Shown one piece after another: positions 30,312 through 42,511 of a stretch of 64,000 bases of DNA (position 1 is the first letter of the stretch; every line of letters starts with the position of its first letter). The notes beneath the pieces were generated by a model. The model saw only the letters and a program-made list of their open reading frames with translations. It was not told the origin of the DNA and did not search any database. The translations under genes were made by a program, and so were the position numbers. The DNA comes from Planctomycetota bacterium (GTDB taxonomy: Bacteria > Planctomycetota > UBA8108 > SXIK01). Location of the stretch: assembly GCA_965223845.1 (NCBI GenBank), contig CBDCXR010000004.1, forward strand, positions 5,152,001 to 5,216,000. The letters run 5' to 3'.

Positions 30312-31622
30312 ATGACGCGCCCCACGACCACTCGCCGCCGGTTTCTGAAGACCTCGGCTTCGGCCGCCGCCTCGACGCTCGCGCTGCCAACGATCTTCAC
30401 CGGCGAGGGCTTCGCCGCGGAAACGGGGAAGCCGGAGAAGCTCATCACCGCGGCGATCGGCGTCGGAGGGCGCGGCAGTGGAATCGGACGCCAGCTCCGA
30501 GACCGGAGCCGCATGGTGGCATGCTGCGATGTCGATCAGAACCACGCACGCAGGTTCAAGGGGAAGAGCGATATCGAAGCGTACTCGGACTACCGCGCCG
30601 TTCTCGACCGAAAGGAGATCCAGGCGATCACCGTCGGAACTCCCGATCACTGGCACACCCCGATCGTGCTGCGCGCGATCTGGTCCGGGAAGGACGTCTA
30701 CTGCGAGAAGCCGCTCACGCTCACGATCGCGGAGGGTCAGCTCCTCGTGAACGCGGTGAAGCAGACCGGCCGCGTGCTCCAAGTTGGCACTCAGCAGCGG
30801 ACGGAGATGGGACGGCGATTCCTTCAGGCGGTCGCGATCGCGCACTCGGGGAAGCTCGGCCGCGTGAAGCGCGTGACCGCGTGCATCGGCGGCGCGCCGG
30901 ACAGCGGCTCATTCAATCCCTCCGCCCCGCCCGCCCATCTCGACTGGGACTTTTGGCTCGGTCAGGCGCCGCTCGTTCCGTACACGCGCGAGCGCTGTCA
31001 CGGGAACTTCAGGTGGTGGTACGAGTACTCCGGCGGAAAGATGACCGACTGGGGCGCCCACCACGTCGACATCGCGCAGTGGATTCTGAAGAAGACGGAC
31101 ACGGGTCCGACATCCGTGACGCCCCTCTCTTCGACCCATCCGAAGGCCGCTGACAAGAACGGCTACAACACCGCGACGAAGTTCGAGGTCTCCTGCATGT
31201 TCGACGACGGCGGCGAGATCGTCATCCGCCACGACCGACGGAACGGCTGCCACATCGAAGCGGAAAAAGGAAACTTCTACGTCGGACGCGGTGCGATCGA
31301 AGGTCAGATCGTCGACGAGATCAAGAAGTCGAAGGAGCTGACCGAGTGGCTGAACGGCGAAGTGCACAAGCTCTTCGCCGGCAGGTCGCCGAAGGGTCAC
31401 ATGGACAACTTCCTCGACGCGGTCGCCGACCGGAAGCTGCCGATCTCGGACGTCTATTCACACCATCGCATCCTCACGACGTGCCACCTCGCTAACATCG
31501 CGATCCGCACGGGGCGCACGATCCGCTGGAACCCGGAAACCGAGCTCGCGATCGGCGACGCCGACATCAACGCGAACTGGATCCGGCGAGAGCAGCGCGC
31601 GCCGTACTCGTTTACGGCGTAA
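30312..31622 (+). CDS. Tat-exported Gfo/Idh/MocA oxidoreductase
   Basis: TRRRFLK twin-arginine motif, IGVGGRG, TPDHWH, DVYCEKP and DWGAHHVD. Confidence 0.93.
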   Translation: MTRPTTTRRRFLKTSASAAASTLALPTIFTGEGFAAETGKPEKLITAAIGVGGRGSGIGRQLRDRSRMVACCDVDQNHARRFKGKSDIEAYSDYRAVLDRKEIQAITVGTPDHWHTPIVLRAIWSGKDVYCEKPLTLTIAEGQLLVNAVKQTGRVLQVGTQQRTEMGRRFLQAVAIAHSGKLGRVKRVTACIGGAPDSGSFNPSAPPAHLDWDFWLGQAPLVPYTRERCHGNFRWWYEYSGGKMTDWGAHHVDIAQWILKKTDTGPTSVTPLSSTHPKAADKNGYNTATKFEVSCMFDDGGEIVIRHDRRNGCHIEAEKGNFYVGRGAIEGQIVDEIKKSKELTEWLNGEVHKLFAGRSPKGHMDNFLDAVADRKLPISDVYSHHRILTTCHLANIAIRTGRTIRWNPETELAIGDADINANWIRREQRAPYSFTA

Positions 31623-31784: not shown

Positions 31785-31823
31785 AAAAAACGCCGGGCGC
31801 TCCAGCTCGGAGCGCCCGGCGTT
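31785..31823 (-). terminator. Intrinsic terminator of the minus-strand gene ending at 31851
   Basis: Perfect stem AACGCCGGGCGCTCC-agctc-GGAGCGCCCGGCGTT, with a U6 run on the minus strand. Confidence 0.85.
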
Positions 31824-31850
31824 CGTCGATGCGAAACGTCGGACCCTTGC

Positions 31851-32732
31851 TCAGGTCGACGACTCGCGCTGCGCTTGACGCACTCGGACGTACCCCTTCC
31901 GCGCGACGTCCTTCAGCTTCTTTACACGCGAAAACGATCGCGCGACTTCGGCGTAGATGCGCTCGGCGGAATCCAGTCGTCCGTTCTTCTCGTACTTGCG
32001 CGCCGTCCGAAGACGACTCTTTCCGTCGGAGAAGACCTTGCTGTGGTACCGCGCGACCTTCTTCTTGAGCGTTGCGGTCAAGTACGACTCATTGATCCGA
32101 CTCAGCGACTCGAGCGCCTTCTTGTAGTCCCGATCGTTGATCAGCTTCCGCGCCTTGCTGAGGCGCTCCTCGACCTTCGGCGCGTAGGCTTGCTTCCGCG
32201 CCGAAATCGCGCGCGCCACGGCGAGGCCCTTCAGACAGTCACGAGGCTCCGTGCAACGCTGCGTTTTGTAGAGAAGCGTGCCGTCGAGGTCGAGCGCCAA
32301 CACGGAAGGCTTCTTCGAGTCGAGCTCGAAGCTCGCGTAGAGCTCGCGGCCGATACCGTGATCGCGGTTGAAGCGAAACGGAACCGCTCCGCCGCGCGCG
32401 TACTTCACGAGGCGCGGGGACCGGAAGAGCGTACGCTCGTAGTTCGCCGCGCAACAATCCTTCCCGTCGCTCGGCGACACGAGAAGGACGAGGGCGACCT
32501 TACCCTTCTCTTTGCGAGCCGCCTTCGCGATCTCCGAGATGCCCACCGCGTCAGAACGCCAGGCGAGCTGCTCGTTCTCCATGGGTGAGTACGGCGCCTG
32601 ACCGCCGATACCACCGCCGCCGCCTCCGCTCCCACCCGGGGAGCCACCGCCGCCGCATCAGCTGCCGGAGAGGCTTTGCGGACTTAGCCAGAGGAAGAGG
32701 AAGGACGCGAGGAGAAACCCCGTAACTCTCAT
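31851..32732 (-). CDS. Exported thioredoxin-like protein with in-frame TGA at codon 25 (putative selenoprotein)
   Basis: AGAGG RBS, ATG at 32732, then MRVTGFLLASFLFLWLSPQSLSGS-TGA-C-GGGGSPGGSGGGGGGIGGQAPYSP, in frame with ORF 31851..32582 (KDCCAANYERTLF...KPSVLALDLDG). Confidence 0.7.
32628..32660 (-). promoter_or_regulatory. SECIS-like hairpin downstream of the in-frame UGA
   Basis: UGA, 13 nt, then GCUCCC-CGGGU-GGGAGC: a 6-bp stem with a G-containing apical loop about 20 nt after the UGA. Confidence 0.55.
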
Positions 32733-32886
32733 GGCTTGACCTCTTTAGATATGCGGATAGCCCCGGACGGATCCCCCTGCGGACGCGAGCGCCGCGGTCC
32801 GGCGGGCGTGTCGCTCCAGAGCGACTCCATCGTTCTACTTCTCCCGCGCCGCCCAAGCAAGAAACGATCGGCGCGAAATGTTCGAT

Positions 32887-34071
32887 TCAGGGGCACGAGG
32901 CTCGACAGCCGAGGAGCGGCCGATTCGGGACCCCGCAGCCCGGGTACGGCCGTGGCGGCGGGGATCCGCCGAGGAAGAGGAAGCGAAGGAGGAAGAGCCC
33001 GTCGACGAAATCCGCCCGCTCGTTCCCGTCGGCGTCGGCGGCAGCCGGACATTCCACGCCGGTCGCGAGGCCGAGCGAGCGGAGAATCACGCTCACCGCA
33101 TCGGCGATGCGGACGCCGCCATCGCCGTCGACGTCCCCCCGAACAAACCGCGGCGGCCAAGGAACCGTGGTGTCAGGTTCGATCGGCCTGCCCTCCGTCC
33201 TTTTCGGAACTTCTAGCCCGAGCGCGACGAGGATGGTGGGGAAGGTATCGGAGACTCTCACCGGCTCGGCGAGCTCCCGGTAACCGCCCCACTCTCCGCC
33301 AGCCGCGACCCACGGCACGGTCCTCACCTCGGCGACGGGATCGACGTGAGCGTGGCCGACTCCGCCGTGGTCGGAGGTGACGAAGACGGTCGTCTCGGCG
33401 AGATCGAGCACTGCGGTGGCCTTCGCGAGAAGCTGGTCCGTCTCCGCGACGGCCGACAGATACTCGGGCGACATCCACCCGTACCGGTGGCCGGTCGAGT
33501 CCGGCGCAGCGAAGTGGAGAAACGCGAGGTAGTTCGCTGCGCCGAGCGTTCGGAGGTCGTCCGTGAACGCCCTTGTCGCCTCCGCACCGCCCGGCGCGAT
33601 CAAGCACCGATCGAGGGAAGGGTGGCAGAGGAGATCGAGCTTTTCCTTCGTGAGGTAGGCGCGGGCCGAGAACCCCGCCGCCTGCGCCAGCGCGAGAACA
33701 GTACCTTCGATCGTGATGTCGCCCGCGTCGACCGCCTCGACGACTCCGTGTGTCTCTGGCGAGAGCCCGGTCAACATCGAAACGTGGTTCGGAATCGTGA
33801 ACGTGGGCTCGTGGTTCTGCGCGTTGAGCGTGTACGAACCTCGCTCGAGAAGAGTCCACAGAGCCGGCGTTCCGACGGCGCTCACGGCATCGGCCCGGAG
33901 CCCGTCGATCGACACGAGGAGCACGCTCTCCGCTCGCGCGTTCGCGTACAGGACGACGGCAGAGAAAAGGTAGCCCGCTACACCCAGCGCCGTCGGAGGC
34001 CGTGGTCGACGCACCAGAGGGCGCGGTGGGTGATTTCGAATCGGTAGCGATCGGCGAGCGCAGGAGGTCAT
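32887..34071 (-). CDS. Alkaline phosphatase superfamily (nucleotide pyrophosphatase-like) enzyme with dockerin-like tail
   Basis: LVSIDGLR, TFTIPNHVSMLTG, PDSTGH, TSDHGG and FVRGDVDGDG. The start is uncertain. Confidence 0.85.
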   Translation of the reverse strand: MTSCARRSLPIRNHPPRPLVRRPRPPTALGVAGYLFSAVVLYANARAESVLLVSIDGLRADAVSAVGTPALWTLLERGSYTLNAQNHEPTFTIPNHVSMLTGLSPETHGVVEAVDAGDITIEGTVLALAQAAGFSARAYLTKEKLDLLCHPSLDRCLIAPGGAEATRAFTDDLRTLGAANYLAFLHFAAPDSTGHRYGWMSPEYLSAVAETDQLLAKATAVLDLAETTVFVTSDHGGVGHAHVDPVAEVRTVPWVAAGGEWGGYRELAEPVRVSDTFPTILVALGLEVPKRTEGRPIEPDTTVPWPPRFVRGDVDGDGGVRIADAVSVILRSLGLATGVECPAAADADGNERADFVDGLFLLRFLFLGGSPPPRPYPGCGVPNRPLLGCRASCP

Positions 34072-40654: not shown

Positions 40655-42436
40655 TCAGAAGATCTCGGGCTCCTTCTCCTCGTCGATGCGGAGCAGGTGG
40701 TCGAGCGAGAACGGCCCGGAGCCGCGCCACACGAGGAGGATCAGGGAGAAGAACACGAGCAGCGTGAACTGGAACCCCAGGTTCGATCCCCAAAGGCTTC
40801 CTTCCGCGCCCGTGACGCTCACGATCACGGCTCCCAGCATGACCACCGCGTTGACTCCCGCGGCAGCTCTCGTCACGAATCCGAGCGCGAGGCTCGCGCC
40901 CCCGATCACGTGAGCGAACACGACCGACCAGGCGATCATCTGCTGCCCGAGGCCGAGACCGTCGCTGAGCGAGGCCTCGAGCTCGGACATGTTCATGATG
41001 TAGTAGACGCCTTTGATCAGGAGCGCGATGCCGAGGTAGATCCGCAAGGCATCCATCGGACGGATGTGGCGGATTCCCGGGACGAGATCGCGGACCGGCT
41101 TGCGGTACCTGCGCTCGACTCGACGCCGCTCGATCGCTCGTTGGAACTCCTCGGAGGCGGCCTTCTCCTGGGCGGGGCTGAAGCGCACGAGAAACGCTGC
41201 GAACGCGCAGAAGGCGACACAGCACCCGAGGATAAGGAATGCGTCCCGATAGGATATGTTCTCGGCTCGGAGGAGGAAGCCGGCACAGACGGCGCCCATG
41301 TTTCCTCCGGCGCCCACGATTCCGGCGACCGCACCGAGCGCCTTCTTGTTGATGAACGGGACGACCGAGTAGGTCGCACCTTCGGACATCTGAACGAAGA
41401 GGCTGAAGACGATCATCGACGGGATCGCCAAGGCGATCACGGTCATCCGGGAGAAGAAAACGAGAGCGACGCCTTCGATGAGGAGAGCGATGAAGAGCCA
41501 CCGGACGCGGCCTCGGAGACCTCCGTTGCGGACGAACCGGTCGCTGATGTAGCCGCCGAGCGTGCGCGCGAAGATGTTCATGAGGCCGAAGAGTCCGGCG
41601 ACCAGCCCGGCGGTCTTGAGGCCGAGTCCGAAGTAGTCCCGGTAGTAGATCGCAGCGACATTGTTGATCGTGAGCTCGATCCCGAAACATGCCGCATAGA
41701 TGACGAAGAGCGCCCACACCCGATAGTCCTTCACCGCGGACCAGAAGGCGCCCTTCGACTTGGCGACGGTCGTCAGCTCACCTTTCTCGCGCAGCTCCTT
41801 AAAGTTCCCGTCCGGCAGATCGGTCGTGACGAACCAGTACGCGATTCCGGTGATGAGGCAGACCGCGCCGGCGACCACCATCGACGCGCGCCAGCTCGCG
41901 GCGTCCGAAAGGCCCATCGTGAGAAAGGCGGCCATGACGAGCGGCATCACCATCTGCGTGACGCCTCCTCCCAGGTTGCCCCAGCCGGCCGAGGTGGCAT
42001 TGGCCGTTCCCACGACGTTCGGAGCGAACATCACCGAAGTGTGATACTGGGTGATGACGAACGAAGCGCCGATGGTCCCGATTCCGAGACGGAACAAGAG
42101 GAACGTGGTGTAGTCCTGCGCGAGGCCGATCCCCATCACCGGCAGCGACCCGAGAACGAGAAGGATCGTGTAGCTCTTCCGCGGACCGATCCGGTCGCAG
42201 AGCCAGCCGATGAAGAGGCGCGCGAAGATCGTGATCGCGACGGAAGCGATGATCGTGTTTCCGATCTGCTGTTTCGTGAGCGACAGCTCCTCTCGCACGA
42301 CCGCCATCAAAGGGGCGATGCCGAACCACGCGAAGAAGCAGAGGAAGAAGGAGAACCACGTCATGTGGAACGCCCGCATCTGACGCGTCTTCAGCGTGAA
42401 GAGATCGATGCTCGTTGCCTTGTTCCGAACTTCCAC
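40655..42436 (-). CDS. NRT2/NarK-family nitrate transporter fused to a C-terminal DoxX-like domain
   Basis: GTG after GGAG. AFHMTWFSFFLCFFAWF, nitrate signature GTANATSAGWGNLGGG, GIVGAGGNMG, then LRIYLGIALLIKG...GFVTRAAA...GSGPFSLD. Confidence 0.9.
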   Translation of the reverse strand: MEVRNKATSIDLFTLKTRQMRAFHMTWFSFFLCFFAWFGIAPLMAVVREELSLTKQQIGNTIIASVAITIFARLFIGWLCDRIGPRKSYTILLVLGSLPVMGIGLAQDYTTFLLFRLGIGTIGASFVITQYHTSVMFAPNVVGTANATSAGWGNLGGGVTQMVMPLVMAAFLTMGLSDAASWRASMVVAGAVCLITGIAYWFVTTDLPDGNFKELREKGELTTVAKSKGAFWSAVKDYRVWALFVIYAACFGIELTINNVAAIYYRDYFGLGLKTAGLVAGLFGLMNIFARTLGGYISDRFVRNGGLRGRVRWLFIALLIEGVALVFFSRMTVIALAIPSMIVFSLFVQMSEGATYSVVPFINKKALGAVAGIVGAGGNMGAVCAGFLLRAENISYRDAFLILGCCVAFCAFAAFLVRFSPAQEKAASEEFQRAIERRRVERRYRKPVRDLVPGIRHIRPMDALRIYLGIALLIKGVYYIMNMSELEASLSDGLGLGQQMIAWSVVFAHVIGGASLALGFVTRAAAGVNAVVMLGAVIVSVTGAEGSLWGSNLGFQFTLLVFFSLILLVWRGSGPFSLDHLLRIDEEKEPEIF

Positions 42437-42495
42437 GGTTGGTTCTCCGGGCGGTAAACCGGTTCTCTGTGCACGCACTCCGTCATCCGCCGACA

Positions 42496-42511
42496 AGAAA
42501 ACTCCGTGCCA
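42496..42511 (-). promoter_or_regulatory. Sigma54-type -24/-12 promoter of the NRT2-DoxX gene
   Basis: TGGCACGGAGTTTTCT (non-canonical -12 element). Confidence 0.65.

Follow-up and report, generated by a model that had tools for sequence, protein, structure and literature searches.

A probable exported selenoprotein family of Planctomycetota with selenocysteine on an N-terminal arm ahead of a thioredoxin-fold domain

In the window (the whole 64-kb stretch of DNA that was analysed) a gene on the reverse strand contains an in-frame UGA as codon 25, and it is nearly certain that this codon encodes selenocysteine and that the gene is a selenoprotein gene. The UGA is very probably decoded by ordinary bacterial Sec insertion and the protein is probably exported. 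The selenoprotein family is absent from the catalogues searched, and judging from the sequences what is new is its architecture, with Sec placed on an exported N-terminal arm, including forms where two Sec residues follow each other.

The ORF called with translation table 11 comprises 243 aa and begins at Met51, exactly 50 codons past an upstream ATG in the same frame (Table 1), and both this ATG and the AGAGG ribosome-binding site in front of it were found where the initial annotation had placed them. The frame upstream of codon 25 encodes MRVTGFLLASFLFLWLSPQSLSGS, followed by the TGA (32660-32658), TGC and a linker of 20 residues that are 70% Gly, in agreement with the single TGA, Cys codon and Gly-rich stretch described earlier, and the read-through product of 32732-31851 (-) has 293 residues. 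The strong terminator noted after the gene can also be seen, and a T-rich tail after a hairpin is visible 3' of most of the 8 homologues inspected. A σ70 promoter scan at the gene found none; the gene appears to be transcribed alone. An assembly error had been raised at the outset as a possible origin of the TGA. Assemblies of 3 public runs, which come from no more than 2 samples of 1 study and possibly from the window's own source, showed 0 differences in the stretch around it, and as these contigs match, the TGA cannot be put down to an error private to one assembly. Among the sequencing runs listed as containing the stretch there is no RNA data set, which has no bearing on its expression.

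Table 1. Features of the gene and its surroundings, in coordinates of the 64-kb window
Feature	Position	Strand	Basis
Shine-Dalgarno-like AGAGG	32740..32744	-	sequence; 7 nt ahead of the upstream ATG at 32732
Predicted signal peptide, residues 1-23, ending in L-S-G	32664..32732	-	hydrophobic core and homologue pattern
Ser24, predicted first mature residue	32661..32663	-	cleavage site read from homologues
In-frame TGA, codon 25, very probable selenocysteine	32658..32660	-	TGA at the tip in the family and Sec machinery
Cys26, TGC, vicinal partner of codon 25	32655..32657	-	TGA here in UU homologues
SECIS-like hairpin, 6-bp upper stem, loop CGGGU	32628..32644	-	fits published model; support at family level
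Gly-rich linker, residues 27-46	32595..32654	-	predicted disordered; homologue lengths 20-46 aa
Conserved P[YF]xP[GFM]E[NS]xxLxW segment including Met51 (ATG 32582)	32559..32594	-	homologue comparison
Thioredoxin-fold domain of DsbDgamma/DsbH/Thioredoxin_7 type, residues ~52-182	32187..32579	-	predicted model, structure and profile comparison
Cys93-Cys94 in DCCAANYER, at the CxxC loop	32451..32456	-	alignments and hhalign
Cys160 in QxC	32253..32255	-	alignments and hhalign
TPR-like helical C-terminal region, residues 183-293	31854..32186	-	model and weak TPR Pfam matches
Terminal stop codon TGA	31851..31853	-	sequence
Intrinsic terminator, 17 pairs and T run	31788..31824	-	sequence

The reading of the TGA as Sec, put forward in the initial annotation, agrees with the machinery found: selA, selB, selD and a tRNA-Sec were all detected above curated cut-offs in the window's genome (G000; 7.93 Mb in 4 contigs, 91.7% complete). 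Among the 34 genomes bearing the gene selA was found in 33 and selB in 32, all 34 having at least one of them; this co-occurrence is weak evidence, since 58 of the 61 related genomes overall have selA anyway. All four carriers outside the class (4/4) have selA and three of the four have a tRNA-Sec, the genome without one being 66% complete.

When comparing the 45 distinct family sequences with DNA, a TGA was found at the tip in 42, the other three being two Cys-only tandem paralogues and one sequence masked by N. The TGA exchanges with TGC or TGT, TGG never being seen, and at the position of codon 25 the homologues have either TGA or a TGC beside a TGA, never a codon for Trp, Arg or Gly. The frame is kept on both sides, with the signal peptide upstream and the domain downstream, and a signal peptide together with the TGA is retained at 28-46% identity. 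Only 8 of 38 parsed homologues have any Met between tip and domain, so that starting internally is not the general pattern in the family. Against these findings it is highly improbable that the TGA represents a genuine stop codon or a lesion, with the protein starting at Met51, or that UGA is read as Cys or Trp, even though TGA is the commonest stop codon in G000 (ending 1805 of 2901 long coding-like ORFs), a Met at the MEN position is present also in several close homologues and the hairpin of the window gene is not significant alone; in addition, ARAGORN found one tRNA with anticodon TCA in the genome, the tRNA-Sec, and no other. Global recoding of UGA was rejected on this tRNA result and on the role of TGA as the main stop codon. 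ARAGORN also labelled two tRNAs with anticodon CTA as Pyl (G000:C4:1643846-1643919 and 6791124-6791203), calls that are probably false.

Downstream of the UGA the sequence GCUCCC-CGGGU-GGGAGC, pointed out in the initial annotation, can fold into a hairpin of -9.6 kcal/mol with a loop starting 19 nt after the UGA, and it fits the SECIS model in the legend of Fig 2A of PMC13188914. Hairpins with a G first in the loop, situated 16-24 nt after the UGA, recur in homologues with unrelated stem sequences, as that model requires (PMC13188914). In the MAFFT alignment the SECIS region was not well enough in register for pairs to be counted, and synonymous-codon shuffles were used instead. A strict test for perfect stems gave p < 0.05 in 10 of 18 genes, while with a permissive fold the model hairpin was found in 25 of 27 homologues, p 0.05 being reached by 4/27 and p 0.1 by 13/27, with a combined Fisher value of 3e-6 that is overstated as kin are not independent. 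A Cys-only paralogue (p 0.58) still folds, with a hairpin of -15.9 kcal/mol, which indicates that Gly codons form hairpins cheaply. Taken alone, the window hairpin does not rise above chance (z -0.64 to -1.32 with dinucleotide shuffles and p 0.11-0.12 with shuffles of synonymous codons), so that of the earlier description the presence of the hairpin stands and its weight does not: a SECIS-type hairpin is common to the family, and beyond chance at family level only. A scan for the combination of signal peptide, RBS, TGA and coding frame gave 6 candidates, among which the window gene has the strongest hairpin.

A word-based search yielded 6 proteins, each with its annotated start lying 3' of the tip, and a profile search of 1.84 billion representatives gave 188 matches, 55 of them at 1e-10. 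Out of 156 proteins 98 were aligned over the motif and, in the form in which they had been called, a signal peptide was absent from 41 of the 42 flagged as having the vicinal CC and present in 42 of the 56 without it. This flagging is crude, two CC rows being distant proteins, one signal peptide having been missed and one truncated row being the Cys-only paralogue. The 41 CC-flagged database proteins without signal peptide are consistent with truncation by gene callers, as is the called ORF beginning at Met51, and the selenium-bearing members of the family are cut short by gene callers, which the initial annotation had expected to miss the gene.

Comparison of the 38 parsed TGA-bearing homologues revealed A or G as residue -1 in all of them (38/38) and L as residue -3 in 32/38, while the residue after the predicted cut is Gln in 33/38 (one QG counted) and Gly in 4, the window gene having Ser. 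The signal peptide proposed earlier is retained, but the U-C pair had been taken as the first mature residues; from the homologues we infer that signal peptidase I cleaves after Gly23, leaving one residue, Ser24, ahead of the pair. Processing as a lipoprotein by signal peptidase II was rejected, the residue after A/G being Q, S or G in 38/38 with no lipobox Cys. An exposed N-terminal Gln can cyclise to pyroglutamate in Bacteroidetes, as described in PMC5837995 and PMC10653852, and by analogy pyroglutamate at the Gln-first tips of the family is only a possibility.

The protein search gave matches in 34 of 61 related genomes, G000 included, and a sample of 401 genomes of the phylum gave strong matches in 4 further genomes outside the class. 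Named records with the family are almost all Planctomycetota MAGs; two loci in records titled Proteobacteria (L043) and Bacillota (L057) encode domains that are found in identical form in G032 and G038, both placed in the class of the window, and these titles look mislabelled. A tblastn search of G000 for the domain showed no paralogue.

When all loci were pooled, giving 45 distinct domain sequences, the U-C tip described for the window, which is correct for this gene, appeared as one variant among several, the CU, UU and single-U forms having been missed. The tip is CU in 20, UU in 10, UC in 8, a single U in 4 and Cys only in 1, the 2 left unreadable there being one masked by N and one later resolved as Q-D-C-G without TGA. 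In three of the four single-U cases a Cys follows five residues on, and in the fourth (L011) none is nearby; a vicinal pair is hence not obligatory, and the Sec of L011 would need a partner elsewhere, e.g. in the domain. On a tree of 44 rows, with one short row left out and with long branches that make it unsure elsewhere, UU occurs in three places, namely at L023, at L039 and in a clade of 8 that branches from within the CU forms. The series UC, CU, UU, single U and Cys only at one site makes it testable why Sec is used over Cys, and the UU members do the same for whether bacterial SelB decodes back-to-back UGA with one SECIS. Both Cys-only genes are tandem paralogues of a TGA copy (L081:1225-3620 in G307 and L095/L108 in G159), with a long linker containing several spaced Cys (CP.. 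repeats), and they are possibly a selenium-independent backup.

To the initial description of a thioredoxin-like domain with a vicinal CC, which is supported by the predicted model and by structure and profile comparison, a third near-invariant cysteine, Cys160, and a TPR-like half have to be added. The AlphaFold2 model (26 sequences) has a mean pLDDT of 87, with residues 18-43 below 50 and disordered, and it shows no docking of the disordered arm. Residues 52-182 are closest to the DsbD C-terminal, DsbH and AGR/UAS types (3f9u_B, Z 13.3, rmsd 2.1, 120 aligned), and for the helical region a comparison with 4wng_A gave Z 11.1 over 61 aligned residues, below the level meaningful for helical bundles. 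Pfam and NCBIfam searches with the read-through protein gave nothing significant, the TPR Pfam matches being weak, and some family members match Thioredoxin_7 or DsbD weakly, while a PDB sequence search with alignment A1 gave linker and helix noise only.

Alignment with CxxC relatives by hhalign (probability 99.5) places C93-C94 at the CxxC loop, in a register uncertain by one residue, and C160 at a conserved Gly after the last strand of these relatives. At that loop the family has DCCA or DCCC and no CxxC, UxxC or CxxU motif. Both C93 and C94 are invariant in alignment A1, and in A3 C93 is invariant and C94 is present in at least 90%; C160 is invariant in A1 and A3 and absent from the L095 U-C copy. 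Pro142 occupies the usual cis-Pro position of the thioredoxin fold and is presumably in the cis conformation, and from thioredoxin geometry we take the C93-C94 loop to border the active site.

By and large, proteins with the arm also have the three domain cysteines and proteins without it lack them. Armless sister proteins with intact signal peptides and the same thioredoxin plus TPR architecture lack CC and C160, and a paralogue in G159 is without Sec, CC and C160 together; exceptions are the L095 U-C copy without C160 and the L081 Cys-only paralogue, which keeps CC and C160 without Sec. The distant Thioredoxin_7 and TPR relatives L100 (G097) and L102 (G331) have a TGA in the active site (WUGYC), so that Sec is found at two different places in the superfamily.

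The most likely mechanism, to which we give about an even chance, is that the probably exported thioredoxin-fold protein acts as a periplasmic redox relay with its Sec-Cys arm recycled on the domain cysteines. SelB would read the hairpin 3' of the UGA and Sec would be inserted, after which export by the Sec pathway and a signal peptidase I cut after Gly23 would produce Ser-Sec-Cys-Gly, or Gln-Sec/Cys-Sec/Cys-Gly in most homologues. The arm selenolate would then attack an oxidised substrate (for instance a disulfide of a protein, a sulfenic acid or a small oxidant) and close into a vicinal selenenylsulfide, in UU forms a diselenide, before swinging back to the active-site face where C93, C94 and C160 would re-reduce it. 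The domain would draw on the DsbD/CcdA pathway for its recharging, with a client or partner bound by the TPR-like helices. Contact between arm and domain is favoured because of the coupling of arm and cysteines, the tether and the lone-U tip. The thioredoxin fold, closest to periplasmic DsbDgamma and DsbH types, counts for the relay and the missing CxxC of the domain against it; a DsbD transmembrane domain was found in 5/5 carriers tested and also in 10/14 control genomes. Stated as one joint claim, which we offer tentatively and would sooner doubt than assert, the family may be a new class of extracytoplasmic redox enzyme whose selenium sits on a swinging arm at the N-terminus and which mirrors, within one chain, the tail of thioredoxin reductase; several lineages would have been independently upgraded from Sec-Cys or Cys-Sec to Sec-Sec, with SelB decoding two consecutive UGA from one hairpin and a vicinal diselenide cycle operating, likely with a pyroglutamate cap.

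The main rival to the redox relay is binding of soft metals or metalloids (Hg, Cu, Ag, As) by the exported selenoprotein, the arm capturing the ion and handing it to CC/C160, so that the protein would serve as a periplasmic chelator or chaperone. Each chain would offer five or six S/Se ligands, the interchangeable order of the tip (UC, CU, UU) suits ligation and spaced linker Cys are present in the L081 Cys-only paralogue. Moreover, CU dipeptides recur in the metal-linked SaoL, SaoC, HgcA and MbdU according to PMC13188914, SaoC being described as an exported protein that ends in CC or CU (10.1101/2022.07.06.499078). This reading is nevertheless rather unlikely when set against the annotated recurrent neighbours, among which no metal transport or resistance gene was seen, and against a thioredoxin fold that has kept the proline at the cis-Pro position, which favours thiol-disulfide chemistry.

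The top Foldseek match of the model is E. coli YbbN (3qou, E 7.6e-4), followed by 3qdn, which would suit a periplasmic chaperedoxin like CnoX/YbbN where TPR-like helices hold unfolded clients and the Sec arm shields client Cys through mixed bonds; CnoX is likewise described as having an atypical active site and using a Cys away from it (PMC8129009). The whole-length superposition is poor, however (TM 0.26, rmsd 17.9), the thioredoxin half is nearer to DsbDgamma and Thioredoxin_7 and the helical part is shorter than the ten helices of CnoX, a protein that works in the cytoplasm with GroEL and glutathione (PMC8129009) whereas a signal peptide is predicted here, all of which makes a chaperedoxin improbable.

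When analysing the surroundings of the gene, a PF10023 aminopeptidase was found downstream in 8 of 35 loci (seen in L037, L039-L043, L046 and L050, in some of them followed by an ECF sigma factor and a zf-HC2 anti-sigma factor, mostly past a terminator-like hairpin), while other loci are flanked by large CCP_MauG di-haem proteins of 500-1600 aa, on the 3' side in some genera and on the 5' side in others (L034, L036, L044, L047, L051, L055, L057). An operon with recurrent neighbours was rejected, as terminator-like hairpins intervene, and since the gene stands alone the recurring aminopeptidase, ECF sigma and MauG-type neighbours name no substrate. An ECF sigma gene in 5/35 loci and a zf-HC2 anti-sigma gene in 4/35 could suggest that the arm is a redox switch or latch whose Se-S bond with the domain opens or closes a TPR partner surface without catalytic turnover, and the armless Cys-poor sisters, which keep the scaffold, imply that it can work without catalysis. 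A latch is still quite improbable, given that a terminator-like hairpin separates the gene from the sigma and anti-sigma genes, that both are absent in the window and that a second Sec was gained repeatedly, which speaks for selection acting on the chemistry.

Beside the gene the window contains a nucleotide pyrophosphatase/phosphodiesterase with a dockerin-like tail (32887-34071, -) and a Gfo/Idh/MocA oxidoreductase with a twin-arginine-like leader (30312-31622, +), neither conserved beside the homologues. Further away, 40655-42496 (-) encodes what we take to be an MFS transporter similar to nitrate/nitrite porters, with a DoxX-like membrane segment fused at its C-terminus. A rough scan of the G000 chromosome gave 29 further in-frame TGA candidates, of which 11 were checked (L109-L119, G000:C4); these have SECIS-like hairpins, several with loops like that of the window (CGUGA, CGUGU), and in most cases leader-like N-termini. 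Proteins with an in-frame TGA among them are of TlpA/ResA type (L109, L116, L117), a GPx (L110), a peroxiredoxin (L113) and an FG-GAP/ASPIC-UnbV/redoxin protein (L114), and three have no Pfam or NCBIfam match: L111 (GGLU), L112 (CFGAGU) and L115 (GCVU). L119 is an ArsC family selenoprotein over the cut-off and L118, UshA-like with a cytochrome c tail, falls just under it. The findings point to an uncultured lineage of Planctomycetota in which the exported selenoproteome is sizeable.

As the initial annotation had supposed, the family does not correspond to a selenoprotein family described in the sources searched. NCBIfam 20.0 with 26 members gave best E-values of 0.0011-0.09 and no selenoprotein model except a weak match to NF041199 (E 0.0024, one member), Pfam gave no significant match, and the 2026 list of 119 prokaryotic selenoprotein families (Table 1 of PMC13188914), compared by name and motif, holds no matching entry. 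Searches of mainly open-access literature gave no description of the family. The listed bacterial thioredoxin-fold selenoproteins (Sec-Trx, DsbA/DsbG-like, Trx7/PDZ NF041199 and TsoA-Y; PMC13188914) share with it the UGA and hairpin within the CDS, the Sec machinery and the fold, but have UxxC, CxxU or similar motifs where the window family has CC and QxC, and in the latter Sec lies outside the domain on a disordered arm at the mature N-terminus. No UU motif is among the entries of Table 1 in PMC13188914; consecutive Sec has a precedent in the PDI-like algal PDI_e (GUGUU), a eukaryotic protein for which the authors found no bacterial homologue (PMC7539508).

SaoC (NF040734) is likewise exported, has a terminal CC or CU pair and is truncated by gene callers (10.1101/2022.07.06.499078), but its pair is C-terminal and it is described as mostly a lipoprotein of ~158 aa from a nine-gene operon, and the window family has no NF040734 match. 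CnoX/YbbN (PDB 3qou) has an atypical-site thioredoxin domain fused to TPR helices, an architecture that the window family may share, with the same domain order but a poor global fit, and it differs in its cytoplasmic partner systems, its thioredoxin subtype and the lack of a Sec arm. Exported Planctomycetota proteins with Thioredoxin_7 (PF13899) and TPR, together with the DsbDgamma/DsbH folds, present the same scaffold (hhalign 99.5, ESM Atlas neighbours), but have CxxC, UxxC (L100, L102) or a single Cys and no arm.

In mammalian thioredoxin reductase the C-terminal GCUG centre sits on a flexible arm. By analogy this centre is the nearest chemistry to that proposed here, with a vicinal Cys/Sec pair at a chain end that could form an eight-membered selenenylsulfide ring and be recycled by a second Cys centre (PMC9598160). 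The two are not homologous, no FAD/NADPH domain being present in the sequence or the model of the window protein, and in contrast to the reductase the pair of the window family would lie at the N-terminus of an exported protein, in an order that varies between UC, CU, UU and U.
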